From assembly GCF_054482595.1 (NCBI RefSeq), contig NZ_CM137008.1: a stretch of DNA of 64,000 nt; one strand, written 5' to 3'. Positions 19,686-37,205 of this stretch are shown one piece after another. The translations under genes were made by a program, and so were the position numbers. How positions within the stretch are numbered: position 1 is the stretch's first letter; each line of letters opens with the position of its first letter. The notes below the pieces were generated by a model. That model saw only the letters and a program-made list of their open reading frames with translations, had not been told where the DNA came from and ran no database searches.

Positions 19686-20621
19686 ATGTCGCAAAATCAA
19701 GAAATTAGCAAGAAAGAACAATACAACCTGAACAAATTACAAAAACGCCTGCGTCGTAACGTGGGCGAAGCCATTGCTGACTTCAATATGATTGAAGAAG
19801 GCGATCGCATCATGGTTTGCCTCTCCGGGGGTAAAGACAGCTATACCATGCTGGAGATTCTGCGCAATTTGCAGCAAAGCGCGCCAATCAATTTTTCGCT
19901 GGTGGCTGTTAACCTCGATCAAAAGCAACCGGGCTTCCCGGAACACGTTCTGCCCGAGTATCTTGAAAAGCTGGGCGTTGAGTACAAGATTGTTGAAGAG
20001 AACACTTACGGTATCGTGAAAGAGAAGATTCCAGAGGGCAAAACCACTTGCTCACTGTGTTCTCGGCTACGTCGCGGTATCCTTTATCGCACCGCAACGG
20101 AACTGGGGGCGACGAAGATCGCGTTGGGCCACCATCGTGACGATATCCTGCAAACGTTGTTCTTAAATATGTTCTACGGCGGCAAGATGAAAGGTATGCC
20201 TCCGAAACTGATGAGCGATGATGGCAAACATATTGTTATTCGTCCGCTGGCCTACTGCCGCGAGAAAGATATTCAGCGATTTGCCGATGCAAAAGCGTTC
20301 CCGATTATTCCGTGCAACCTGTGCGGTTCACAGCCTAACCTGCAACGTCAGGTGATTGCTGACATGTTGCGTGACTGGGATAAACGTTATCCAGGGCGTA
20401 TCGAGACGATGTTCAGCGCGATGCAGAATGTGGTGCCGTCACATCTGTGCGATACCAACCTGTTCGATTTCAAAGGCATCACCCACGGTTCTGAAGTGGT
20501 TAACGGGGGTGATCTGGCGTTTGATCGCGAAGAGATCCCACTACAACCGGCGGGCTGGCAGCCAGAAGAAGATGAAAATCAGTTGGATGAGTTACGGCTG
20601 AATGTGGTTGAAGTGAAATAA
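19686..20621 (+). CDS. ttcA: tRNA 2-thiocytidine(32) synthetase
   Basis: 311 aa; PP-loop SGGKDS; CxxC cysteine pairs. Confidence 0.95.
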
Positions 20622-20624
20622 CCA

Positions 20625-20705
20625 GGATAGCGCCCGATGCGCAAGCGTATCGGGCTACTCTTATGGAGGCCGGATAAGACGCGGCCAGCGTCGCATCCGG
20701 CAATC
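20625..20705. repeat. REP/BIME elements between convergent ttcA and dbpA
   Basis: ggccggataagacgcg and gcgtcgcatccggcaat match REP consensus. Confidence 0.6.
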
Positions 20706-20749
20706 CCGAATAAGATGTTTACTCTTGCACCCGGCAATTCAACATTTCA

Positions 20750-22123
20750 TTATTTTAATAACCGCACCCGGCACGTTTTTCCTTTAATCTTCCCGCCCTG
20801 TAACTGTTTCCATGCTTTATGAGCAACAGCCTGACGGACCGCGACATAGACATGCGCCGGATGCACGGCGATTTTGCCTATATCTGCGCCATCAAGCCCG
20901 ATATCTCCTGTCAGTGCACCTAATACATCACCCGGGCGCATTTTGGCTTTTTTCCCGCCATCGATACACAACGTTGCCATTTCTGCTTCCAGCGTCACAA
21001 TGGAACTATTAGCTGGCGGCGTTTGCCAGTTAAGTTTTATCTGCAACATGTCAGAAATGATATTGGCCCGCTGTGCTTCTTCCGGAGCACAGAAACTGAT
21101 CGCCAGACCGCTATTTCCTGCACGAGCTGTACGACCGATGCGATGTACATGAACTTCAGGGTCCCACGCCAGCTCAAAGTTCACCACCAGCTCAAGCGAT
21201 TTAATATCCAGACCACGCGCAGCAACATCAGTCGCGACCAGTACACGGGCGCTACCGTTAGCAAAACGTACCAGGGTCTGATCGCGATCGCGTTGCTCCA
21301 AATCGCCGTGTAATGACAATGCACTTTGCCCTACTTCATTCAGCGCGTCGCAGACAGCCTGGCAATCTTTTTTGGTATTGCAAAACACCACGCAAGAGGA
21401 TGGCTGATGCAAGCTTAATAACCGTTGCAACAGAGGAATTTTGCCTTTACTGGATGTCTCATAAAATTGTTGTTCAATGGGTGGCAAAGCATCTGTTGAG
21501 TCAATTTCAATCGCCAAAGGATCGCGTTGCACTCGTCCGCTGATTGCGGCGATGGCTTCCGGCCAGGTTGCCGAAAACAGAAGCGTCTGTCGAGATGCAG
21601 GCGCAAAACGGATGACATCATCAATGGCATCGCTAAATCCCATATCCAGCATGCGGTCGGCCTCATCCATCACCAAAGTATTCAGCGCATCCAGTGATAC
21701 CGTGCCTTTTTGCAGGTGATCCAGCAAACGGCCCGGCGTTGCCACGATAATATGCGGCGCATGTTGCAACGAATCACGCTGCATACCGAACGGTTGACCA
21801 CCGCACAACGTCAAAATTTTGGTATTTGGCAGAAAACGCGCCAGCCGACGCAATTCACCTGCCACCTGATCCGCCAGTTCACGCGTAGGACACAGCACTA
21901 AAGCCTGGGTTTGAAATAGCGACGCATCAATTTGCTGTAACAAGCCGAGGCCAAAAGCCGCCGTTTTGCCGCTGCCAGTTTTCGCCTGCACGCGAACATC
22001 TTTTCCGGCAAGGATCGCCGGAAGCGCGGCGGCCTGCACCGGCGTCATGGTTAAATAACCCAACTCATTAAGGTTCGTGAGTTGGGCGGGAGGCAAAACA
22101 TTCAGGGTAGAAAAAGCGGTCAC
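20750..22123 (-). CDS. dbpA: ATP-dependent RNA helicase DbpA (23S rRNA-specific DEAD-box)
   Basis: 457 aa; Walker A AKTGSGKT; DEAD box VMDEAD. Confidence 0.95.
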   Translation of the reverse strand: MTAFSTLNVLPPAQLTNLNELGYLTMTPVQAAALPAILAGKDVRVQAKTGSGKTAAFGLGLLQQIDASLFQTQALVLCPTRELADQVAGELRRLARFLPNTKILTLCGGQPFGMQRDSLQHAPHIIVATPGRLLDHLQKGTVSLDALNTLVMDEADRMLDMGFSDAIDDVIRFAPASRQTLLFSATWPEAIAAISGRVQRDPLAIEIDSTDALPPIEQQFYETSSKGKIPLLQRLLSLHQPSSCVVFCNTKKDCQAVCDALNEVGQSALSLHGDLEQRDRDQTLVRFANGSARVLVATDVAARGLDIKSLELVVNFELAWDPEVHVHRIGRTARAGNSGLAISFCAPEEAQRANIISDMLQIKLNWQTPPANSSIVTLEAEMATLCIDGGKKAKMRPGDVLGALTGDIGLDGADIGKIAVHPAHVYVAVRQAVAHKAWKQLQGGKIKGKTCRVRLLK

Positions 22124-22155
22124 AATCTATTCTCGTGGTCATCGACGCAAAGTCA

Positions 22156-22326
22156 TCAGGCGCGTATCCTCGCAGATCTACGCTCACGATGCGACAATTT
22201 AATCGGTTCTTCATCGGGTGGTGGGTCAGGCATGGGTTGCGGGCGAGGGATCGGATCGGGCACTGGAACAGGATCGCCAGGAATCGGTTCAGGGACAGGA
22301 ATTTGCAAATAAATAAGTATCGTCAT
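22156..22326 (-). CDS. Candidate small proline-rich protein (56 aa), unnamed
   Basis: Hand-translated from the minus strand: MTILIYLQIPVPEPIPGDPVPVPDPIPRPQPMPDPPPDEEPIKLSHRERRSARIRA, stop TGA. GGAGGG 4 nt upstream of the ATG. Below the ORF-track length cutoff. Confidence 0.4.
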   Translation of the reverse strand: MTILIYLQIPVPEPIPGDPVPVPDPIPRPQPMPDPPPDEEPIKLSHRERRSARIRA

Positions 22327-22383
22327 ATTTCCCTCCGGTCATTGGGTGGACTCTTAAAGGGTAGACGCTGATAAATAACAGGC

Positions 22384-22505
22384 AAAAAAAAGCCGACTCA
22401 TCAAAGTCGGCGTCGTACGAATCAATTGTGCTATGCAGTAATTCAAAAAAGGAAGTAAGACAATATGGAGCGCAACGCCCATCGCTTGACGTTGCATTCA
22501 CCTGC
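22384..22505 (-). ncRNA. fnrS: FnrS small RNA (FNR-activated)
   Basis: Reverse complement reads GCAGGTGAATGCAACGTCAAGCGATGGGCGTTGCGCTCCATATTGTC...GAGTCGGCTTTTTTTT, matching recalled FnrS incl. terminator; located between zntB and dbpA as in K-12. Confidence 0.85.
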
Positions 22506-22539
22506 AAGAGAGATATTGCCCTGAATGGGTAGAGAGTTT

Positions 22540-22553
22540 ATTGACTTCGCTCA
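22540..22553 (-). promoter_or_regulatory. FNR box upstream of fnrS
   Basis: ttgacttcgctcaa approximates TTGAT-N4-ATCAA; centre about 41.5 nt upstream of the inferred FnrS 5' end. Confidence 0.55.
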
Positions 22554-22600
22554 AACTTTGCGGCGTTTTTGTATACAGACAGCCGGAAAAATTGCTTTTG

Positions 22601-23605
<1,005 letters not shown>

Positions 23606-23838
23606 TTATTTTGTAGTCTAGCCTTCTGGCCCTGTTACGCAACATCTCATCACCCCATTACCCTGAAATGATTAATAAAATTCTGTCTAAATTGAATACA
23701 AAAAGCAAAATGCTTTTCCGTATACAAACCGTGTGAAGTGTTAAATAGCGTCTATCATTATCAGAATTATCTGATCATATGACGTGGCTTTTTTGCGATC
23801 GGATAGCAACAAAAATTGATAAAAATAATGGGATCTCA

Positions 23839-25071
23839 ATGATTACGCACAACTTCAATACCCTGGACTTACTCACCAGTCCTGTCTGGATCGTTTCGCC
23901 CTTTGAGGAACAGTTAATTTATGCCAATAGCGCGGCGCGACTGTTGATGCAAGACCTCACGTTTAGTCAGCTACGAACCGGTCCCTATTCCGTCTCCTCA
24001 CAAAAAGAACTGCCGAAATACCTCTCCGATCTGCAAAACCAACACGATATTATCGAAATCCTCACTGTTCAGCGTAAAGAAGAGGAAACAGCATTAAGCT
24101 GTCGGCTTGTTTTGCGAGAGCTGACAGAAACAGAACCGGTGATTATTTTCGAAGGTATCGAAGCGCCGGCAACGCTGGGTTTAAAAGCCAGTCGCTCAGC
24201 AAATTATCAGCGCAAAAAACAAGGTTTTTATGCGCGCTTTTTTCTGACTAACTCTGCACCAATGTTGTTGATTGACCCGTCACGAGATGGCCAAATCGTC
24301 GATGCTAACCTCGCCGCGCTCAATTTCTATGGTTATAACCATGAAACGATGTGCCAGAAACATACCTGGGAAATAAATATGCTCGGGCGTCGCGTCATGC
24401 CTATCATGCATGAAATTTCGCATTTACCCGGCGGTCATAAACCTTTGAATTTTGTTCATAAACTGGCGGATGGATCTACTCGTCATGTGCAGACCTATGC
24501 CGGACCGATTGAAATTTATGGCGACAAGCTCATGTTATGTATTGTGCATGATATTACTGAGCAAAAACGGCTGGAGGAGCAGCTGGAACATGCTGCTCAC
24601 CATGACGCGATGACCGGATTACTGAATCGGCGACAGTTTTATCACATTACGGAACCAGGCCAAATGCAGCATCTCGCCATCGCTCAGGATTACAGCTTGT
24701 TGCTCATCGACACCGATCGTTTTAAACACATTAACGATCTCTATGGGCATTCTAAAGGTGATGAGGTGTTATGCGCCCTCGCCCGCACCCTCGAAAGTTG
24801 CGCTCGCAAAGGCGATTTGGTGTTTCGTTGGGGAGGCGAAGAGTTTGTCTTATTGCTACCAAGAACCCCACTGGATACCGCGCTTTCGCTGGCTGAAACT
24901 ATCCGCGTAAGCGTGGCAAAAGTGAGTATTTCGGGCTTACCACGCTTTACCGTCAGCATTGGTGTGGCGCATCACGAAGGAAATGAAAGCATCGATGAAC
25001 TGTTTAAACGCGTTGATGATGCTTTGTATCGGGCGAAAAATGATGGACGCAACCGCGTGCTGGCGGCATAA
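23839..25071 (+). CDS. dgcM: Diguanylate cyclase DgcM (PAS-PAS-GGDEF)
   Basis: ORF track 23779..25071; start at MITHNFNTLDLL gives 410 aa; GGEEF active site in RWGGEEFVLLL. Confidence 0.9.
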   Translation: MITHNFNTLDLLTSPVWIVSPFEEQLIYANSAARLLMQDLTFSQLRTGPYSVSSQKELPKYLSDLQNQHDIIEILTVQRKEEETALSCRLVLRELTETEPVIIFEGIEAPATLGLKASRSANYQRKKQGFYARFFLTNSAPMLLIDPSRDGQIVDANLAALNFYGYNHETMCQKHTWEINMLGRRVMPIMHEISHLPGGHKPLNFVHKLADGSTRHVQTYAGPIEIYGDKLMLCIVHDITEQKRLEEQLEHAAHHDAMTGLLNRRQFYHITEPGQMQHLAIAQDYSLLLIDTDRFKHINDLYGHSKGDEVLCALARTLESCARKGDLVFRWGGEEFVLLLPRTPLDTALSLAETIRVSVAKVSISGLPRFTVSIGVAHHEGNESIDELFKRVDDALYRAKNDGRNRVLAA

Positions 25072-25091
25072 GCCGCGGATGCGTCTCGAGA

Positions 25092-25655
25092 TCAACGACT
25101 GCGCTTAGCGTGGCGCTCCCAGTTTTCTTGCTTCGCCTGCGCCGTTTTACGTAGTGCGACGTAACACGCCCCGCTGCCGCCATGATGCGGTAGCGCGGTG
25201 CAATATGCCTGAACATCATCAAATTCGGTCAGCCAGCGCGCCACATAGCTGCGGACAATATTGGCATGCGATTTATCATCCCGCCCTTTACCATGAATAA
25301 TCAGCACGTTACGCAAACCATCCGCCAGGGCTTGTTGAATAAAACTGAACACCATTTTGCGGCACTCTTCCACCGGCTGGCGCAAAAGATTCAGGCTCGC
25401 CTGTTGCGGATATTTACCACTGCGCAGCTTATCCAGCACCCCATGTTGCAACCCTTCCCGCCGAAACTCCAGCGGCTGACTTAGTGGGATAATGTCGAGA
25501 AATCCGGTAGTGAGGAAATTATCAAGCTGCAGCGTGTCGATACGCTGTGGCGCACGTTGGTTACGCGTGGGATGCCAGTGGACATCGGTAGCACGTTTCA
25601 GCGGCTGGACATCTTCCATGGCGTCAAGAAACAGCGATTTGTCGTCAAGGTTCAT
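25092..25655 (-). CDS. smrA: Smr-domain DNA endonuclease
   Basis: 187 aa; C-terminal Smr domain; synteny. Confidence 0.85.
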   Translation of the reverse strand: MNLDDKSLFLDAMEDVQPLKRATDVHWHPTRNQRAPQRIDTLQLDNFLTTGFLDIIPLSQPLEFRREGLQHGVLDKLRSGKYPQQASLNLLRQPVEECRKMVFSFIQQALADGLRNVLIIHGKGRDDKSHANIVRSYVARWLTEFDDVQAYCTALPHHGGSGACYVALRKTAQAKQENWERHAKRSR

Positions 25656-25882
25656 GTTACATCCTCCCGCAATTAAGAGCGCGATATGATAACCAGACCG
25701 GGTCGGTCCAACAACGTATTACCCAAAATTCCAGTAATAAGTTCCAAATGTTGCCGATATTTTAAGCAAAATGCTTATGCATGATTATTCATTCACGATA
25801 TTAATAATGTAACTTATATTTTCGTGAAATCTGTCACTGAAGAAAATTGGCAACTAAAGGTTAAAACCGTTATAACACAGTC

Positions 25883-25977
25883 ACCGGCGCAGAGGAGACA
25901 ATGCCGGATTTAAGACGCGGATGCACTGCTGTGTGTACTATAGAGTCTGGCGGATGTCGACAGACTCTATTTTTTTA
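25883..25977 (+). ncRNA. mcaS: McaS (IsrA) small RNA
   Basis: ACCGGCGCAGAGGAGACAATGCCGGATTTAAGACGCGGATGCACTGCTGTGTGTACT...CGACAGACTCTATTTTTTT matches recalled McaS; between smrA and abgR as in K-12. Confidence 0.8.
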
Positions 25978-25984
25978 TGCAGTT

Positions 25985-26893
25985 TTAACTTTGCAGATAG
26001 CCGCATTCTCGCCGGAATTGCGTGATTAATGACGCGGTCAGTGGTGTCTGGCGACTATCACGCCGCTGAATCAAATAATAGGCCGCTTTCGGTAAAATTT
26101 CGCTAACCGGCAACATCACCAGCCCCTGTCCGTGCAAGGGATCGCAGCCCATTTCTTCAGGCAGTATGCTGAGAAAATCGCTTTTTGCCACCAGACTGAT
26201 ACAGGCTGAGAACGTCTCGCAGACTACACCGACCTGTGGCGTTTGCGCCTGATCGTCAAGCAATTCACTCAACTGTTTGTAGTAGCTGCCGTGTGGCGTC
26301 GGCATTGTCCAGCTGTAATCCAGTAACTGTTTGATCGAACGGGCACCAATGGCGGGGTGTCCCGGGCGGCAAAAGATCGCGAATTGCTTTTCCAGTAATT
26401 TCTCAAAAGTAAATTCGTGGTCGTACGATCCCTGATAATAGGTATTGATGGTGAAATCCAATTCTCCCTGACGCAATTCATTAATCATCGACACCAGTTG
26501 CCCTTCCATAATGCGTACTTTTACCTGCGGATGCTGCTGATGAAAACGAGATATGACAGCTGGCATCAGACTGCGGGAAATACTGGCCCCCATGCCGATA
26601 TTAATCTGCCCTGCCAGTTGCCCTTGTCGTTGGCGAATATCCTCTTGGGCTGCGCGCAGCTCTTCAAGAATAAGACTGGCGTGCTGATAAAAACTTTCAC
26701 CGGCATCAGTTAACGTCACGCCTTTACTACGGCGAAAAAAGAGTTGCGCCGCTAACCCTTCTTCCAGCTCCTGAATAGATTTACTCAGTGCCGGTTGCGA
26801 CATATTCAACATTCGGCTCGCTCCGCGAATGCTGCCCTGACGAGCCACTTCAACAAAAGCCCGAATTTGATGAATTTTTACCTGAAAAGCCAT
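25985..26893 (-). CDS. abgR: LysR-family regulator of abg operon
   Basis: 302 aa; N-terminal HTH (QGSIRGASRMLNMSQPALSKSIQELE); divergent from abgA. Confidence 0.9.
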   Translation of the reverse strand: MAFQVKIHQIRAFVEVARQGSIRGASRMLNMSQPALSKSIQELEEGLAAQLFFRRSKGVTLTDAGESFYQHASLILEELRAAQEDIRQRQGQLAGQINIGMGASISRSLMPAVISRFHQQHPQVKVRIMEGQLVSMINELRQGELDFTINTYYQGSYDHEFTFEKLLEKQFAIFCRPGHPAIGARSIKQLLDYSWTMPTPHGSYYKQLSELLDDQAQTPQVGVVCETFSACISLVAKSDFLSILPEEMGCDPLHGQGLVMLPVSEILPKAAYYLIQRRDSRQTPLTASLITQFRRECGYLQS

Positions 26894-27068
26894 GACGCCA
26901 CCGATAACCGTTATTTATCAGACCAAAGAAACTGGCATCTACTTTAATGCAGATGATTGTGTCAGGGTAATTTATGAACGGTTAAAACTGTGAAAAATCA
27001 GTTAGTGATAAGTAAAAACTATCGCTACGTGAACCGGGTCACACTTTTTACTGATGACGGGAAAGGTT

Positions 27069-28379
27069 ATGGAGTATTTGAATCAATTTGTTAATTCGCT
27101 TGCCCCAAAATTATCGCACTGGCGACGTGATTTTCATCACTATGCAGAGTCTGGCTGGGTGGAATTCCGCACTGCCACCCTTGTTGCGGAAGAATTGCAG
27201 CAGCTCGGCTATTCACTGGCGCTGGGCCGCGAAGTAGTTAATGAAAGTAGCCGGATGGGACTACCTGATGAACTCACTCTACAACGCGAATTCGAGCGCG
27301 CTCGTCAACAGGGTGCGCTAGCACAATGGATTGCGGCTTTTGAAGGTGGTTTCACTGGTATCGTCGCCACCCTGGATACCGGTCGCCCCGGTCCGGTGAT
27401 GGCTTTCCGTGTCGATATGGACGCGCTGGATCTCAGTGAAGAGCAGGATGTCAGCCATCGCCCCTACCGCGACGGTTTTGTGTCATGTAACGCCGGAATG
27501 ATGCATGCCTGTGGTCATGATGGGCATACCGCCATTGGGCTTGGGCTGGCGCATACCCTTAAACAGTTCGAGTCCGGACTACATGGCATCATCAAACTGA
27601 TTTTTCAACCTGCAGAAGAAGGTACGCGTGGCGCGCGGGCGATGGTCGATGCAGGTGTAGTGGATGATGTTGATTATTTTACTGCCGTGCACATTGGCAC
27701 TGGCGTACCTGCGGGCACCGTGGTGTGCGGCAGTGATAATTTTATGGCAACCACCAAATTTGACGCGCACTTCACCGGGACCGCCGCTCACGCAGGCGCA
27801 AAACCAGAAGACGGTCACAATGCCTTGTTGGCGGCAGCACAAGCAACTCTTGCACTGCATGCAATCGCCCCGCACAGCGAAGGCGCTTCCAGAGTAAACG
27901 TGGGCGTTATGCAGGCAGGAAGCGGTCGTAATGTTGTTCCTGCCTCGGCGTTGCTGAAAGTGGAAACACGCGGGGCCAGCGACGTCATTAATCAATATGT
28001 TTTTGACCGTGCACAACAAGCGATTCAGGGCGCAGCAACCATGTATGGTGTCGGCGTTGAAATTCGTCTGATGGGTGCAGCTACCGCCAGTTCTCCTTCG
28101 CCGCAATGGGTCGCATGGTTGCAAAGTCAGGCGGCTCAGGTCGCGAGGGTCAATCAGGCCATTGAACGTGTCGAAGCGCCTGCGGGTTCCGAAGATGCCA
28201 CATTAATGATGGCCCGCGTGCAGCAACATCAAGGGCAAGCCTCCTACATGGTGTTTGGCACACAGCTGGCGGCAGGTCATCACAACGAAAAATTCGATTT
28301 TGACGAGCAGGTTCTCGCTATTGCCGTCGAAACGCTGGCGCGCACCGCGCTCAATTTTCCCTGGACGCGAGGTATCTGA
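27069..28379 (+). CDS. abgA: p-Aminobenzoyl-glutamate hydrolase subunit A (M20 family)
   Basis: ORF track 27054..28379; start at MEYLNQ gives 436 aa. Confidence 0.9.
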   Translation: MEYLNQFVNSLAPKLSHWRRDFHHYAESGWVEFRTATLVAEELQQLGYSLALGREVVNESSRMGLPDELTLQREFERARQQGALAQWIAAFEGGFTGIVATLDTGRPGPVMAFRVDMDALDLSEEQDVSHRPYRDGFVSCNAGMMHACGHDGHTAIGLGLAHTLKQFESGLHGIIKLIFQPAEEGTRGARAMVDAGVVDDVDYFTAVHIGTGVPAGTVVCGSDNFMATTKFDAHFTGTAAHAGAKPEDGHNALLAAAQATLALHAIAPHSEGASRVNVGVMQAGSGRNVVPASALLKVETRGASDVINQYVFDRAQQAIQGAATMYGVGVEIRLMGAATASSPSPQWVAWLQSQAAQVARVNQAIERVEAPAGSEDATLMMARVQQHQGQASYMVFGTQLAAGHHNEKFDFDEQVLAIAVETLARTALNFPWTRGI

Positions 28380-29824
28380 TGCAGGAAATCTATCGTTTTA
28401 TCGACGATGCGATTGAAGCCGATCGCCAACGTTATACCGATATTGCCGATCAAATCTTGGATCATCCAGAAACACGTTTTGAAGAGTTCTGGTCAGCGGA
28501 GCATCTGGCTTCGGCGCTGGAATCTGCAGGCTTCACCGTTACCCGCAACGTAGGCAATATCCCAAATGCCTTTATTGCTTCGTTTGGTCAAGGCAAACCG
28601 GTTATCGCCCTGCTGGGAGAATATGACGCCCTGGCAGGTTTAAGTCAGCAAGCAGGTTGCGCGCAACCTACATCCGCGACGCCCGGTGAAAATGGTCACG
28701 GTTGCGGACACAATTTGCTGGGAACCGCCGCCTTTGCCGCTGCAATAACCGTCAAGAAATGGCTGGAACAATATGGGCAAGGCGGCACGGTGCGCTTTTA
28801 TGGTTGTCCTGGCGAAGAAGGCGGCTCGGGTAAAACGTTCATGGTTCGCGAGGGGGTATTTGATGATGTGGATGCGGCACTCACCTGGCACCCGGAAGCC
28901 TTTGCCGGTATGTTCAATACCCGCACGCTGGCAAACATTCAGGCATCATGGCGCTTTAAAGGGATCGCAGCACATGCCGCGAATTCCCCTCATTTGGGAC
29001 GCAGCGCCCTTGATGCCGTAACGTTGATGACCACTGGCACCAACTTCCTCAACGAACATATTATTGAAAAAGCGCGCGTACACTATGCCATCACAAATAG
29101 CGGCGGGATCTCGCCCAACGTGGTCCAGGCGCAGGCAGAAGTGCTTTATCTTATCCGCGCCCCCGAAATGACCGACGTGCAGCATATTTATGATCGGGTC
29201 GCCAAAATCGCCGAAGGTGCGGCATTGATGACCGAAACCACGGTTGAATGCCGCTTCGACAAAGCCTGTTCCAGTTATCTCCCGAATCGCACCTTAGAAA
29301 ATGCCATGTACCAGGCCCTATCCCATTTTGGTACCCCGGAATGGAACTCCGAAGAACTGGCTTTTGCGAGACAAATTCAGGCTACGCTCACCTCCAACGA
29401 TCGGCAAAACAGTCTGAATAATATCGCCGCAACCGGTGGCGAAAACGGCAAGGTTTTTGCACTACGTCATCGTGAAACGGTACTGGCGAATGAGGTCGCT
29501 CCATATGCCGCCACCGATAACGTGCTTGCGGCATCGACTGATGTCGGCGACGTCAGTTGGAAACTGCCTGTTGCCCAGTGTTTCAGCCCCTGTTTTGCCG
29601 TCGGTACACCGCTACATACGTGGCAACTGGTTAGCCAGGGGCGAACATCTATTGCTCATAAAGGAATGCTGCTGGCGGCGAAAACTATGGCAGCAACCAC
29701 AGTCAATCTCTTCATTGATTCAGGGCTATTGCAAGAATGCCAACAAGAGCATCAGCAAGTTACGGACACGCAACCGTATCACTGCCCTATCCCGAAAAAC
29801 GTGACACCGTCACCTTTAAAATAA
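28379..29824 (+). CDS. abgB: p-Aminobenzoyl-glutamate hydrolase subunit B (M20 family)
   Basis: 481 aa; start overlaps abgA stop. Confidence 0.9.
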   Translation: MQEIYRFIDDAIEADRQRYTDIADQILDHPETRFEEFWSAEHLASALESAGFTVTRNVGNIPNAFIASFGQGKPVIALLGEYDALAGLSQQAGCAQPTSATPGENGHGCGHNLLGTAAFAAAITVKKWLEQYGQGGTVRFYGCPGEEGGSGKTFMVREGVFDDVDAALTWHPEAFAGMFNTRTLANIQASWRFKGIAAHAANSPHLGRSALDAVTLMTTGTNFLNEHIIEKARVHYAITNSGGISPNVVQAQAEVLYLIRAPEMTDVQHIYDRVAKIAEGAALMTETTVECRFDKACSSYLPNRTLENAMYQALSHFGTPEWNSEELAFARQIQATLTSNDRQNSLNNIAATGGENGKVFALRHRETVLANEVAPYAATDNVLAASTDVGDVSWKLPVAQCFSPCFAVGTPLHTWQLVSQGRTSIAHKGMLLAAKTMAATTVNLFIDSGLLQECQQEHQQVTDTQPYHCPIPKNVTPSPLK

Positions 29825-29857
29825 CAACAACGCAAACACAACAACCGAGGAATGCCC

Positions 29858-31384
29858 ATGAGTATGTCATCCATACCGTCGTCCTCCCAATCCGGGAAGC
29901 TCTATGGCTGGGTCGAAAGAATTGGTAACAAGGTTCCCCATCCTTTTTTGCTCTTTATCTATTTGATAATCGTACTCATGGTGACGACGGCAATTTTGTC
30001 AGCCTTTGGCGTCAGTGCGAAAAACCCGACCGATGGTACGCCGGTGGTGGTGAAAAACCTGCTCAGTGTGGAAGGATTACACTGGTTTTTACCCAATGTG
30101 ATTAAAAACTTTAGCGGTTTTGCTCCACTTGGAGCGATCCTGGCGCTGGTTTTAGGTGCCGGCCTAGCGGAGCGCGTCGGCTTACTGCCAGCGCTAATGG
30201 TTAAAATGGCATCGCATGTTAATGCCCGCTACGCCAGTTATATGGTGCTGTTTATTGCTTTTTTCAGCCACATTTCTTCCGATGCGGCGTTAGTGATCAT
30301 GCCACCGATGGGTGCGCTGATTTTTCTGGCGGTGGGCAGGCATCCAGTTGCAGGTTTACTGGCCGCCATTGCAGGCGTAGGTTGCGGCTTCACGGCTAAT
30401 TTACTGATTGTCACAACCGACGTGTTGCTGTCGGGGATCAGCACGGAAGCGGCGGCTGCGTTCAATCCGCAAATGCACGTCAGTGTAATTGATAACTGGT
30501 ATTTTATGGCCAGCTCCGTAGTCGTACTGACGATTGTTGGCGGCCTGATAACCGACAAAATCATCGAGCCACGGTTAGGTCAATGGCAGGGAAACAGCGA
30601 TGAGAAACTGCAGACATTGACCGAAAGTCAGCGTTTTGGTTTACGCATAGCAGGTGTCGTATCGCTACTTTTTATTGCTGCGATCGCGCTGATGGTGATC
30701 CCGGAAAACGGGATATTGCGCGATCCGATTAATCACACCGTGATGCCATCACCCTTTATTAAAGGTATCGTGCCACTGATCATTCTTTTTTTCTTTGTTG
30801 TCTCGCTGGCTTATGGCATCGCTACCCGCACAATTCGACGTCAGGCGGATTTACCGCATTTAATGATTGAACCGATGAAAGAGATGGCGGGATTTATCGT
30901 GATGGTTTTTCCCCTAGCCCAGTTTGTCGCCATGTTTAACTGGAGCAACATGGGGAAATTCATCGCCGTGGGGCTGACCGATATACTTGAAAGTTCAGGG
31001 CTTAGCGGCATCCCGGCGTTTGTCGGTCTGGCGTTGCTTTCCTCTTTCTTATGCATGTTTATTGCCAGCGGTTCCGCAATCTGGTCGATTCTGGCCCCCA
31101 TTTTCGTACCAATGTTTATGCTACTTGGCTTTCACCCGGCATTTGCGCAAATCCTCTTTCGTATTGCCGACTCATCCGTATTGCCTTTAGCGCCGGTATC
31201 TCCTTTTGTTCCACTGTTTCTTGGATTCCTGCAACGCTACAAACCAGACGCGAAACTGGGTACTTACTATTCGTTAGTCTTGCCCTATCCGCTTATCTTT
31301 TTGGTGGTATGGCTGCTGATGTTGCTGGCGTGGTATCTTGTCGGTCTGCCGATAGGTCCGGGTATTTACCCACGTTTGTCTTAA
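29858..31384 (+). CDS. abgT: p-Aminobenzoyl-glutamate transporter
   Basis: ORF track 29852..31384; start at [11 protein letters not shown] gives 508 aa; polytopic membrane protein. Confidence 0.9.
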
Positions 31385-31394
31385 GAGAGAACGG

Positions 31395-31910
31395 ATGCTG
31401 AGATTACTTGAAGAAAAAATTGCCACGCCACTGGGTCCACTGTGGGTGATTTGCGATGAGCAATTTCGCCTGCGGGCGGTTGAATGGGAAGAGTACAGCG
31501 AACGCATGGTGCAGCTGCTGGACATCCATTATCGCAAAGAAGGCTATGAGCGCATTTCTGCCACCAACCCAGGTGGTTTAAGCGACAAGCTTCGTGAATA
31601 TTTTGCCGGTAATCTTAGCATTATTGATACGCTTCCCACTGCCACGGGGGGGACGCCATTTCAGCGCGAAGTCTGGAAAACACTGCGCACTATCCCCTGC
31701 GGGCAGGTAATGCATTATGGCCAACTGGCTGAACAATTAGGCCGCCCTGGCGCGGCGCGTGCCGTTGGTGCGGCAAACGGATCGAATCCCATCAGCATCG
31801 TCGTACCTTGCCATCGGGTTATTGGCCGAAACGGCACCATGACCGGATATGCAGGCGGAGTTCAGCGAAAAGAGTGGTTATTGCGCCACGAAGGTTATCT
31901 TTTGCTGTAA
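31395..31910 (+). CDS. ogt: O6-methylguanine-DNA methyltransferase
   Basis: 171 aa; active-site PCHRV motif. Confidence 0.9.
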
Positions 31911-32071
31911 ACATTAAACAATTTGTGCCAGCTTGTTCACACTTTTATGTAAAGTTACCCTTAACAACTTAAGGGTTTTCAAATAGATAGACATATATTT
32001 ACATCTAATATCGGAATTCTCTGCTGTTAAGGTTTGCTTAGACTTACTTGCTCCCTAAAAAGATGTTAAAA

Positions 32072-32085
32072 TTGACAAATATCAA
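32072..32085 (+). promoter_or_regulatory. FNR box in fnr promoter region (autoregulation)
   Basis: ttgacaaatatcaa fits TTGAT-N4-ATCAA, about 20 nt upstream of the fnr start codon. Confidence 0.5.
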
Positions 32086-32104
32086 TTACGGCTTGAGCAG
32101 ACCT

Positions 32105-32857
32105 ATGATCCCGGAAAAGCGAATTATACGGCGCATTCAGTCTGGCGGTTGTGCTATCCATTGCCAGGATTGCAGCATCAGCCAGCTTTGCATCCCGTTC
32201 ACACTCAACGAACATGAGCTTGATCAGCTTGATAATATCATTGAGCGGAAGAAGCCTATTCAGAAAGGCCAGACGCTGTTTAAGGCTGGTGATGAACTTA
32301 AATCGCTTTATGCCATCCGCTCCGGTACGATTAAAAGTTATACCATCACTGAGCAAGGCGACGAGCAAATCACTGGTTTCCATTTAGCAGGCGACCTGGT
32401 GGGATTTGACGCCATCGGCAGCGGCCATCACCCGAGCTTCGCGCAGGCGCTGGAAACCTCGATGGTATGTGAAATCCCGTTCGAAACGCTGGACGATTTG
32501 TCCGGTAAAATGCCGAATCTGCGTCAGCAGATGATGCGTCTGATGAGCGGTGAAATCAAAGGCGATCAGGACATGATCCTGCTGTTGTCGAAGAAAAATG
32601 CCGAGGAACGTCTGGCTGCATTCATCTACAACCTGTCCCGTCGTTTTGCCCAACGCGGCTTCTCCCCTCGTGAATTCCGCCTGACGATGACTCGTGGCGA
32701 TATCGGTAACTATCTGGGCCTGACGGTAGAAACCATCAGCCGTCTGCTGGGTCGCTTCCAGAAAAGCGGCATGCTGGCAGTCAAAGGTAAATACATCACC
32801 ATCGAAAATAACGATGCGCTGGCCCAGCTTGCTGGTCATACGCGTAACGTTGCCTGA
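32105..32857 (+). CDS. fnr: Anaerobic global regulator FNR
   Basis: ORF track 32048..32857; start at [23 protein letters not shown] gives 250 aa; N-terminal Cys cluster and C-terminal HTH. Confidence 0.95.
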
Positions 32858-33008
32858 TTTTTCCGCATAACTCACTATCCTTCTGTCATATCATTAAATT
32901 TTTCTGATTTATTGATCTGGCAGAAGGTTCATCACTGTTTCATTCACCAGATATGGGTTAATCTTTTAATTACAAACTGCGTTGACAGTTGTTGTAAGGA
33001 GACCCTGT

Positions 33009-33959
33009 ATGGCTATGTATCAGAACATGCTCGTTGTTATCGATCCTAACCAGGACGACCAACCAGCATTGCGGCGAGCTGTTTATTTACATCAACGGAT
33101 TGGTGGCAAAATTAAAGCCTTTTTGCCGATCTATGACTTCTCATACGAAATGACCACCCTGCTCTCCCCGGACGAACGTACCGCTATGCGTCAGGGCGTC
33201 ATCAGCCAGCGTACAGCCTGGATCCACGAGCAGGCAAAATATTATCTCAATGCTGGCGTTCCCATTGAAATTAAAGTGGTCTGGCATAACCGTCCCTTCG
33301 AAGCCATCATTCAGGAAGTGATCAGCGGCGGGCACGATTTGGTGCTAAAAATGGCGCACCAACATGACCGTCTGGAAGCGGTGATTTTTACGCCAACGGA
33401 CTGGCATCTGTTACGCAAATGCCCAAGCCCGGTGTGGATGGTGAAAGACCAGCCGTGGCCGGAAGGAGGCAAGGCGCTGGTGGCGGTGAATCTCGCCAGT
33501 GAAGAGCCGTATCATAATGCGCTCAATGAAAAACTGGTCAAAGAGACGATCGAACTGGCAGAACAAGTCAACCATACCGAAGTTCATCTGGTTGGCGCTT
33601 ATCCGGTAACGCCAATTAATATCGCGATTGAACTGCCGGAATTTGATCCGAGCGTTTATAACGATGCCATTCGTGGGCAACATTTGCTGGCAATGAAAGC
33701 TCTGCGGCAGAAATTCGGCATTAATGAAAACATGACGCACGTAGAAAAAGGTCTGCCAGAAGAGGTGATTCCTGATTTGGCGGAGCACTTACAGGCGGGG
33801 ATTGTGGTTCTGGGCACGGTAGGACGCACCGGTATTTCAGCAGCATTCCTCGGCAACACGGCGGAACAGGTGATTGATCATCTTCGCTGCGATCTGTTGG
33901 TCATTAAACCTGACCAGTATCAGACACCCGTTGAACTGGATGACGAAGAAGACGATTAA
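33009..33959 (+). CDS. uspE: Universal stress protein E (tandem Usp domains)
   Basis: ORF track 32982..33959; start at [12 protein letters not shown] gives 316 aa. Confidence 0.9.
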
Positions 33960-33978
33960 CGACTCTTCAATAACTGAC

Positions 33979-34008
33979 AAGGCCCGAGTTATCGGGCCTA
34001 TTTTTTAC
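33979..34008 (+). terminator. Intrinsic terminator after uspE, abutting the ynaJ stop
   Basis: ggcccgagttatcgggcc followed by tatttttt. Confidence 0.65.
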
Positions 34009-34266
34009 TTACTGCTCTTCGCCGCCAAGGAAATAAATTCCCAACGGGATTGCCAGCAACACAGTAAAGACCAGGCTATAAACAAAAATCATCGATGACT
34101 GAATCACATACATTGATGTCGTCCACTCAGACAGCGGAATATTGTACTGTTCTATAACGCCGCCGATAGTCGCGCGAGTCACAACCGACGCCGCAATAAT
34201 GAAAACCGCCAACAAACCAAAGAGAAATTTCTTCCCTTTCGCTGACTTCAGTTTCGCCATAATCAT
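34009..34266 (-). CDS. ynaJ: Small inner-membrane protein (DUF2534)
   Basis: 85 aa; two hydrophobic helices; synteny. Confidence 0.8.
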   Translation of the reverse strand: MIMAKLKSAKGKKFLFGLLAVFIIAASVVTRATIGGVIEQYNIPLSEWTTSMYVIQSSMIFVYSLVFTVLLAIPLGIYFLGGEEQ

Positions 34267-34509
34267 GATGTAATCCTTGTGCAGACAAATTTCTTGTTAC
34301 CTAAACGTAACAATACCATGACATTTCACCGTTGTCTGCTCTGAAAACCTCACCTCTTAGCTGGATTTACAATCAACGCATTGATTAGTTAGCTAATATT
34401 GCTACTTACTTCCCTGACTATTGATGATCTGAATGAATTGTCGCGGTAAAATAGCCCCGCCAGGGGTTTCCGGCATGACGACAATTATCTGGAGGAGCCT
34501 GATAAAACA

Positions 34510-35541
34510 ATGATCGCTGAACTGTTTACAAATAATGCGCTTAATCTGGTCATTATTTTCGGTAGCTGCGCAGCATTGATTCTGATGAGCTTTTGGTTTC
34601 GCCGCGGAAATCGTAAAAGAAAAGGTTTTTTATTCCATGCGGTGCAATTTTTAATCTACACCATAATTATCAGTGCTGTTGGTAGCATTATTAATTATGT
34701 TATAGAAAACTATAAACTCAAATTTATCACCCCAGGCGTTATCGATTTTATCTGTACGTCCCTGATTGCGGTTATTCTGACGATTAAGCTATTTTTGCTG
34801 ATTAATCAGTTTGAAAAACAGCAGATTAAAAAAGGTCGCGATATCACCAGTGCGCGGATTATGTCGCGCATTATCAAAATCACCATTATTGTGGTGCTTG
34901 TTCTGCTTTATGGCGAACATTTCGGCATGAGCCTTTCTGGCTTGCTGACCTTTGGTGGTATTGGTGGTCTGGCTGTCGGTATGGCCGGTAAAGATATTCT
35001 GAGTAATTTCTTTTCCGGGATCATGCTCTATTTCGACCGTCCTTTCAGTATTGGCGACTGGATCCGTTCACCGGACAGAAATATCGAAGGTACAGTAGCG
35101 GAAATTGGCTGGCGAATTACCAAAATTACGACCTTTGATAATCGTCCATTGTACGTACCGAACTCGCTGTTTTCGTCGATCAGCGTAGAAAACCCAGGAC
35201 GAATGACCAACCGCCGCATTACCACGACCATTGGTTTACGTTATGAGGATGCGGCAAAAGTGGGCGTTATTGTCGAAGCCGTACGTGAGATGCTGAAAAA
35301 TCACCCGGCCATCGACCAGCGACAAACCTTACTGGTTTATTTCAACCAGTTTGCCGACTCGTCATTGAATATTATGGTTTATTGCTTTACCAAAACCACG
35401 GTATGGGCTGAATGGCTTGCTGCACAGCAAGACGTTTATTTGAAGATTATCGATATTGTGCAGTCACACGGCGCGGACTTTGCCTTCCCCAGCCAGACGC
35501 TGTATATGGATAACATTACACCGCAGGAACAGGGGCGCTAA
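34510..35541 (+). CDS. ynaI: MscS-family mechanosensitive channel
   Basis: 343 aa; multiple N-terminal TM helices and MscS-like C-terminal domain. Confidence 0.9.
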
Positions 35542-35591
35542 ATCAGACATCACTGGCGTTATCCACAAGGGTAACGCCAGTTCCCATCACA

Positions 35592-37205
35592 TCAATGCTT
35601 CACAATATACATAGTCCGGCTGTACGCCACATCTTCCGGGTTATTAATGGGATAACCTTTCAGCCACGGCTTGATTAATCGTCCATTGGTATATTGATAA
35701 ATTGGTGCAATCGGTGCTTGCTCCATGAGGATTTTTTCTGCCGCGTTGTAATCGGCATTACGCGCTTTAACGGTATTTTCCGTCGATGCCTGGGCCAGAA
35801 CTTTGTCGTATGCCGGATTGTTAAAGCGTGAAATATTTCCTGAATGCGTTGACGTTAATAATGTCAGGAAAGTGGAGGGTTCATTATAATCCCCCACCCA
35901 TGAGGCGCGGATAACATCAAAATTGCCGGTGTTACGGCTATCGATATAGGTTTTCCATTCCTGATTTTGCAATTTAACATCTACGCCAAGGTTCTTTTTC
36001 CACATCGATGCTACAGCAATCGCAATTTTTTGATGGTTTTCTGAAGTGTTATACAAAAGCGTCAGCTTCAGCGGTTTTCGCGGACCATAACCAGCTGCGC
36101 TCAACAAAGTTTTTGCCTGCGCATTCAGTTCTTCCTGACTCATTTGTTCAAACGGCGAAGGTTCCGGCGTAAATCCGGCGGTAACATCTGGTGTAAAATG
36201 CCACGCTGGCTTTTCGCCCGTCCCTAATACTTTTTCGGTCATCAGGCGGCGATCTATCGTCATACTTAATGCCAGACGAACGCGCTGATCTGCCGTCGGC
36301 CCTTTTTGCGTGTTAAACGCATAATAATAGGTCCCGAGCTGCGGCGGCGTATAAACCTGCCCCGGAATATCCTTCAACAGCTTCTGATACATATTTTTCG
36401 GGAAGGATTCGGTGATATCAATATCCCCCGCGAGGTAACGCTTAGTGGCTGCGGATTCCTGATTAATTGGCAGGAAGGTCACTTTTTGCAGTACCGTTTT
36501 GGCGTTATCCCAATAATGGGTATTCGGTACCACGACCAGTTTTTCATTGACTACGCGTTCTTTAAGAACATAAGCGCCATTGCCGATCAGATTTCCGGGT
36601 TTCGTCCACTCTTTACCGCTTTCTACGTTGGCTTTTTGCACCGGGAAGAAGGCAAAGTTAGCGGTTAAATTCACAAACCACGGCAACGGTTTATCAAGCT
36701 GAATTTTCAAGGTATGGGCATCAACTGCGGTGACGCCAAGCTGGTCAGGCGTAGCTTTACCATCAATAATCGCCTGTGCGTTGTTGATTCCCGCCAGCGC
36801 GGCAAACCATGCAAATGGCGATAGCGTTTTCGGGTCCACCAGACGTTGCCAGCTGTAGACAAAATCTTGCGCCGTTACCGGTGTGCCATCCGCCCATTTT
36901 GCGTTATCGCGCAGGGTAAAAGTCCAGATACGGTTGTCATTACTTTTCCACTGAGTCGCAACGCCGGGGACAATCTCCCCTTTCTCGTTCTGATTCACCA
37001 GTCCTTCAAACAGATCGCGAATGACCTGAATCTCTGGCAGGCCCACGGCTTTAGCGGGATCCAGCGACGCAGGCTCATCTTTAATGTGGCGCACCAGCTC
37101 CTGCTTCTCTGCCAGTACTGTGCCGCTCGGAACTTCTGCAGCATACGAAAGAGAAATGCTGCTGACCAACAGCGCACAACACGTGACTGAAACAGAGTGC
37201 TTCAT
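35592..37205 (-). CDS. mppA: Periplasmic murein tripeptide-binding protein (OppA paralog)
   Basis: ORF track 35592..37226; start at MKHSVSVTCCALLVSSISLSYA gives 537 aa; SBP family 5. Confidence 0.9.
   Translation of the reverse strand: MKHSVSVTCCALLVSSISLSYAAEVPSGTVLAEKQELVRHIKDEPASLDPAKAVGLPEIQVIRDLFEGLVNQNEKGEIVPGVATQWKSNDNRIWTFTLRDNAKWADGTPVTAQDFVYSWQRLVDPKTLSPFAWFAALAGINNAQAIIDGKATPDQLGVTAVDAHTLKIQLDKPLPWFVNLTANFAFFPVQKANVESGKEWTKPGNLIGNGAYVLKERVVNEKLVVVPNTHYWDNAKTVLQKVTFLPINQESAATKRYLAGDIDITESFPKNMYQKLLKDIPGQVYTPPQLGTYYYAFNTQKGPTADQRVRLALSMTIDRRLMTEKVLGTGEKPAWHFTPDVTAGFTPEPSPFEQMSQEELNAQAKTLLSAAGYGPRKPLKLTLLYNTSENHQKIAIAVASMWKKNLGVDVKLQNQEWKTYIDSRNTGNFDVIRASWVGDYNEPSTFLTLLTSTHSGNISRFNNPAYDKVLAQASTENTVKARNADYNAAEKILMEQAPIAPIYQYTNGRLIKPWLKGYPINNPEDVAYSRTMYIVKH

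Follow-up and report, generated by a model that had tools for sequence, protein, structure and literature searches.

The minus-strand segment at 22384..22505 of the window, by which we mean the whole 64,000-nucleotide stretch analysed here (NCBI RefSeq assembly GCF_054482595.1, contig NZ_CM137008.1), is almost certainly fnrS, the gene of an Hfq-dependent sRNA that represses its targets and is transcribed from an FNR-activated class II promoter. We encountered no substantive evidence against this reading. The identity and boundaries of the gene, the structure of its RNA and the conservation of its FNR box and -10 element were established directly in this analysis. Gene and promoter are already known and, in this genome, ordinary; biology gains nothing new from them. 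FnrS is a textbook case of a transcriptional activator, FNR, gaining a repressor arm through an sRNA. The by-products of the work are a quantitative footprint of the fnrS promoter (box, -10 and A-tract) across about 117 species among the loci listed in our homologue search, and a resolution, through the canonical spacing to the -10 element, of the discrepancy between -41.5 and -42.5 in the position given for the FNR site.

Identity and boundaries of the fnrS gene

The whole window was scanned with Rfam at gathering thresholds, which three families passed. The minus-strand match to family RF01796 (frnS), at 22505..22388, scored 134.8 bits where 60 are required (E = 4.4e-24) and covers the entire model (positions 1-119 of 119). 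This bears out the initial annotation, which had recognised FnrS on the minus strand from the letters alone. The curated fnrS gene of Escherichia coli K-12 MG1655 (b4699, 1409129..1409250, located between zntB and ynaL-dbpA) was placed by alignment at 22505..22384 (-), with 100% identity over gene and promoter. Rfam and b4699 together define a 122-nt sRNA gene at 22384..22505 (-), with +1 at the G at 22505 and the 3' end after a U8 tract at 22384. The 3' end had been given exactly beforehand, and the 5' end inferred at 22505 equals the curated K-12 start, which makes it exact insofar as that annotation reflects the published mapping; for the published start site we relied on the curated K-12 annotation and secondary sources. 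The reading of the raw sequence had thus placed the sRNA gene, both of its ends and the layout of its promoter to within one base.

Compared with K-12 MG1655, the window shows no differences over 22620..22337, that is, at least from -115 to +168 relative to the start. The sole mismatch within the aligned 22620..22330 (-) falls at window position 22336, well outside fnrS, in the ribosome-binding region of ynaL. The K-12 FnrS, which was reportedly described by Durand and Storz and by Boysen et al., both in 2010, is therefore matched here in sequence, boundaries, FNR box and terminator, and it has the same neighbours, with zntB on the upstream side and ynaL and dbpA on the downstream side. A 351-base query around fnrS found a match in 5392/5426 complete E. 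coli genomes, 4719 of them at an identity of at least 99%. The region had no match in the other 34 of the 5426 genomes, and six of the matching places were on plasmids.

Promoter architecture

A pattern match placed the FNR box TTGAG-CGAA-GTCAA at 22541..22554 on the gene strand (minus); read on the plus strand, the same positions are TTGACTTCGCTCAA. The box agrees with the FNR consensus TTGAT-N4-ATCAA at 8/10 positions, and both the TTGA and the TCAA core are present. Its centre at 22547.5 corresponds, by direct count from +1 = 22505, to -42.5. The FNR-type site named in the initial annotation is thus present, but its centre had been put at about -41.5 and must be corrected to -42.5, the value also given by Myers et al. 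2013; likewise, the box reaches 22554, one base further than the end coordinate of 22553 assigned earlier.

The same one-base disagreement exists in the literature. Myers et al. 2013 (PMC3688515, Table 1) list for fnrS an FNR ChIP-seq peak at 1,407,150 (older K-12 coordinates), a top-scoring site at -42.5 and a sigma-70 occupancy that is higher without O2. The passage of Isabella & Clark 2011 (PMC3032703) that relays the original account of Durand & Storz gives a class II site at -41.5.

The -10 hexamer CAATAT occupies 22513..22518 (-), at -13..-8; it conforms to a conserved CAnnnT and is preceded by a conserved G-14. From the centre of the box to the first base of this hexamer we counted 29.5 bp; with the -10 at -13..-8, this is exactly the distance that a canonical -41.5/-12 class II promoter has. 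The discrepancy between -41.5 and -42.5 therefore concerns the position of the start relative to the -10 element and not the geometry of the promoter. No -35 hexamer was found in the fnrS promoter, and a sigma-70 consensus scan returned no match there; this is expected, because the promoter is activator-dependent, and the scan is therefore uninformative.

As a comparison set we used the canonical class II FNR promoters of narK, nrfA and caiF (-41.5) and ydhY (-42.5) from Table 1 of Myers et al. 2013. Common to these and fnrS are a single inverted repeat over the -35 region, the lack of a -35 hexamer, a weak -10 element and the 29.5-bp spacing. The fnrS promoter differs in that its start lies one base further from the -10 element, hence the -42.5 numbering, and in that the innermost bases of its half-sites are G/G instead of T/A.

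Conservation across Enterobacterales

A DNA-pattern scan with one genome per species yielded at least 120 fnrS loci, and all 120 that were listed belong to Enterobacterales or to unclassified MAGs. The genera among the listed loci include Escherichia, Citrobacter, Enterobacter, Serratia, Yersinia, Photorhabdus and Edwardsiella, as well as Erwinia, Pantoea, Dickeya, Pectobacterium, Hafnia and Arsenophonus. This distribution agrees with the published statement that FnrS homologues are restricted to enterobacteria (PMC3032703).

For the promoter footprint, upstream sequences were aligned without gaps in register with the FnrS 5' end, using the 118 listed loci with enough upstream sequence; per-column conservation was computed on the 117 unique sequences among them. 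An exact TTGA-N6-TCAA is centred at -42.5 in 84/118 of these loci and at -41.5 in 3/118. In the remaining 31/118, the 90 nt examined contain no exact match; 29 of these 31, on inspection, carry a near-match at the same position with one or two deviating bases (for example CTGATCGACATCAA in Erwinia and Pantoea, or TTGCGC....TCAA in some others).

Across the 117 sequences from the listed loci, the first half-site is conserved at T-48 (100%), G-47 (97%) and A-46 (93%), and the second at T-39, C-38 and A-37 (97% each) and A-36 (100%). In the spacer between -30 and -19, every column stays below 0.4 bits, and the -10 block is again strongly conserved (G-14 98%, C-13 95%, A-12 97%, T-8 97%). A-12 and T-8, the two critical -10 positions, are thereby fixed at CAnnnT (-13..-8) among the listed loci. 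Together with the published ChIP-seq peak and site (PMC3688515), this footprint of box and -10 in about 117 Enterobacterales species among the listed loci upholds the earlier assignment to the class II FNR promoters.

Two positions inside the box spacer are also conserved in the 117 sequences (C-44 94%, A-42 90%), and an A-tract upstream of the FNR box, at -64..-61 (22566..22569, minus strand), shows 71-91% A across the same sequences from the listed loci. The A-tract, C-44, A-42 and G-14 may reflect contacts by alpha-CTD or additional contacts by FNR or RNA polymerase. For the A-tract, a docking site for alpha-CTD or an UP-like element is possible, a functional role and an alpha-CTD contact that we infer.

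RNA structure and terminator

In both the minimum free energy (MFE) and the centroid structure, the 122-nt FnrS has three hairpins: a 5' stem-loop, followed by the unpaired linker CUUACUUCCUUUUUU, a small internal hairpin and the terminator with its poly-U tract. The MFE of -32.8 kcal/mol is modestly below that of shuffled sequences (z = -1.67). An RNAalifold consensus of 117 sequences from the listed loci recovers the 5' stem-loop and the terminator, and makes no call on the middle hairpin that is present in the two single-sequence structures.

The 5' stem-loop comprises FnrS nt 1-47 (22459..22505, minus strand; alignment columns 1-47 paired in the consensus). Its stem shows compensatory changes at columns 10/35, 11/34 and 18/27 of the 117-sequence alignment from the listed loci, and its loop AAGCGAUG is conserved. 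The first nine nucleotides are 100% conserved among the listed loci; since the search pattern itself specified nt 5-8, the independent evidence of invariance is limited to nt 1-4 and nt 9. The C/U-rich linker (nt 48-62; 22444..22458, minus strand) is single-stranded in the MFE, centroid and consensus structures and conserved across genera. We take it to be a candidate for Hfq binding and for a second seed region, as known for the family.

The Rho-independent terminator at 22384..22411 (-), claimed in the initial annotation, was recovered by a terminator scan. It consists of an 8-bp stem with five GC pairs (GCCGACUU/GAGUCGGC; stem and loop at 22411..22392), a UGAU loop and the run of eight T at 22391..22384, transcribed as U8. 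Compensatory pairs occur here as well among the 117 sequences from the listed loci: columns 108/126 are AU in 59 and GC in 48 sequences, and columns 109/125 are CG in 84 and UA in 26.

Linkage to zntB

The zntB gene (22601..23584, minus strand) ends 96 nt before the FnrS +1, so that fnrS in the window has its conserved enterobacterial context downstream of zntB (ydaN). Among the listed Enterobacterales loci, zntB is the immediate upstream neighbour, in the same orientation as fnrS, in 91/96 assessable cases, and in all but one of these same-strand cases it ends 71-139 nt before the FnrS +1. A hairpin followed by a T-run was found within the 150 nt upstream of the FnrS +1 in 0/116 listed loci; by the same criterion, the FnrS terminator was recovered in 115/116. 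In the window itself, the terminator scan made no call at 22640..22506 (-), and folding of 22506..22640 gave no significant structure that could serve as a zntB terminator (z = -0.40). That zntB has no intrinsic terminator of its own among the listed loci is the only point of the analysis that we regard as new, and mildly so.

Alternative explanations

The upstream inverted repeat could in principle be a chance match or a CRP site, with FnrS driven by another regulator. TTGA-N6-TCAA occurs in the window at chance level (2 observed against 1.69 expected), so the motif alone is without significance, and each half-site deviates from the FNR consensus at its fifth position (TTGAG/GTCAA versus TTGAT/ATCAA). 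In the 2010 work of Durand and Storz, CRP and ArcA are said to have had minor effects on FnrS levels, which we counted in favour of this alternative. Because the motif count is at chance, the case for an FNR site rests on position and cross-species conservation. Given the density of the motif, the chance of a TTGA-N6-TCAA within +/-1 nt of a given place is about 8e-5, and among the listed loci the half-sites keep their distance from +1 and a conservation of 93-100%, next to a spacer that drifts. The other perfect match in the window is nothing but the promoter site of the fnr gene itself: TTGACAAATATCAA at 32072-32085 (+), 20 nt upstream of the start codon of fnr (32105-32857, plus strand; 9.6 kb from fnrS), and presumably the site of fnr autoregulation. 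The two exact matches in the window are thus both located at genes of the FNR system. The half-sites, moreover, are of the FNR type (TTGA/TCAA) and not of the CRP type (GTGA/TCAC), and an FNR ChIP-seq peak coincides with the fnrS site (PMC3688515). Conservation, ChIP data and the TTGA/TCAA cores led us to reject a chance or CRP-type box as very improbable. Even less credit is due to a dual-function RNA encoding a small protein. An ATG-initiated ORF of 47 aa does begin at nt 9 of FnrS (22497..22354) with AGGUGA before it, but this Shine-Dalgarno-like motif abuts the AUG with no spacer and the reading frame would cross the FnrS terminator. Moreover, in the 110 listed homologues with an AUG at nt 9, a stop follows at codons 3-32 in 62 and is absent from the 128 nt examined in 48, and the indels in these frames are not multiples of three. 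Since neither length nor frame of the ORF is conserved among the listed homologues, a coding role was rejected.

A more serious candidate is that FnrS is, in addition to an sRNA with its own promoter, the 3' end of the zntB transcript: zntB mRNAs would cross the fnrS promoter and stop at the FnrS terminator, and read-through or processing might yield FnrS species. The same-strand linkage and the lack of a terminator-like hairpin between the two genes among the listed loci both speak for it, since zntB transcripts without an intrinsic terminator should end at the FnrS terminator unless Rho terminates zntB. Such Rho-dependent termination after zntB is a live option, and the one paper found to mention both gives zntB and FnrS only as neighbours (PMC3672283). 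The conserved FNR box and -10 element show that fnrS has an autonomous promoter, so that the zntB 3'-end reading would complement the reading as an FNR-activated sRNA gene and not replace it. We consider this addition quite conceivable, though somewhat short of probable. With slightly more reserve, the gene arrangement suggests that fnrS may in effect lie within the zntB 3' UTR across Enterobacterales and that zntB mRNAs may carry the entire FnrS sequence. If so, there could be oxygen-independent transcripts containing FnrS, FnrS derived by processing, or interference of zntB read-through with FNR-activated initiation.

MicL in cutC and DapZ in dapB are 3'-UTR sRNAs with promoters of their own. 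Judged by its arrangement, fnrS would resemble them in sharing the terminator of the upstream gene, in having its own promoter near the 3' end of that gene and in the conserved linkage. It differs from them in that the zntB stop codon precedes the whole of its promoter, and in that co-transcription with zntB is, for fnrS, something that we infer.

Function and proposed mechanism

For FNR occupancy in vivo, anaerobic induction and Hfq-dependent repression of targets we draw on the literature. Anaerobic and FNR-dependent induction from a class II site is reported for the original work in PMC3032703. Eleven operons are described as indirectly repressed through FnrS (PMC3688515). FnrS is Hfq-dependent, and compensatory mutations demonstrated that its 5' end pairs directly with azuC; pairing of the 5' end with glpD is considered probable (PMC8915982). 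By RNA-seq, FnrS has also been seen in Yersinia pestis, adjoining zntB (PMC3672283). For an FNR-induced sRNA of Neisseria gonorrhoeae ('fnrS'/AniS), the authors propose a functional equivalent of FnrS (Isabella & Clark 2011, PMC3032703). Like FnrS, this RNA is induced anaerobically, has a class II FNR promoter and combines a 5' stem-loop with an unstructured region and an intrinsic terminator, but it has no sequence homology to FnrS.

Based on these reports and on the features located here, we propose the following mechanism. Under anaerobiosis, dimers of [4Fe-4S]-FNR would bind the inverted repeat TTGAG-N4-GTCAA at 22554..22541, which overlaps the position that a -35 element would take. Bound FNR would then recruit RNA polymerase to the weak -10 element CAATAT at 22518..22513, which amounts to class II activation. 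Transcription would start at G22505 and end at the GC-rich hairpin and U8 tract at 22411..22384. The resulting FnrS would pair, probably via its invariant 5' end and the single-stranded C/U-rich linker, with mRNAs for functions that are not needed without oxygen and repress their translation. In this way FnrS would extend FNR, which is mainly an activator, into negative control.

Genomic neighbourhood

The other two families that passed the Rfam thresholds are MicC at 17577..17457 (-), with 125.3 bits, and McaS at 25883..25978 (+), with 117.4 bits, both above their cut-offs. The three sRNA genes span 8,522 bp, in line with the earlier remark that MicC, FnrS and McaS lie within about 9 kb. The site of the Rac prophage in K-12 is ttcA; here there is no Rac, and ttcA (19686-20621) adjoins uspF and ompN. 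As a consequence, MicC lies only 5 kb from FnrS, as against about 28 kb in K-12, and the presence of three sRNAs in 8.5 kb follows from the absence of Rac and not from functional clustering. A cluster acting as a functional unit was rejected because the 23-kb Rac separates MicC from FnrS in K-12. Given an estimated 100 or so known sRNAs in a genome of 4.6 Mb, it is unremarkable that three of them should fall within 8.5 kb at some place. A permissive Rfam scan of 16-27 kb gave only sub-threshold additional matches, attributable to chance or REP-like. One of these, to naRNA4, lies at 20668-20706 on both strands in the ttcA-dbpA interval (29.1 bits against a gathering threshold of 59.5) and is probably a REP-type palindromic element.

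Over 12000..36000, the window matches E. coli SM107 and several further strains with 100% identity. Its genes follow each other in the order ompN, uspF, ttcA, dbpA, ynaL, fnrS, zntB, ynaN, dgcM, smrA, abgR, abgABT, ogt, fnr and uspE. Relative to K-12, only the wider context of fnrS differs, namely in the missing Rac prophage at ttcA, in the substitution at 22336 and in YnaL, which has 56 aa here, as against 57 aa in K-12, and carries a T3I change. The gene of this proline-rich small protein (22156-22326, minus strand) begins 58 nt downstream of the FnrS 3' end, on the strand that also carries fnrS. Synthesis of the YnaL protein was reportedly validated by VanOrsdel et al. in 2018. A ynaL homologue was found downstream of fnrS in only 15/120 listed loci, among them those of Escherichia, Citrobacter and Lelliottia.

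Two RefSeq PGAP records whose DNA is identical to the window, one over the 351 bases and one over 24 kb, carry no ncRNA feature for fnrS, micC or mcaS, and the interval between zntB and ynaL appears to be unannotated in most RefSeq E. coli genomes. The curated K-12 record, unlike the PGAP records, does annotate all three sRNA genes.
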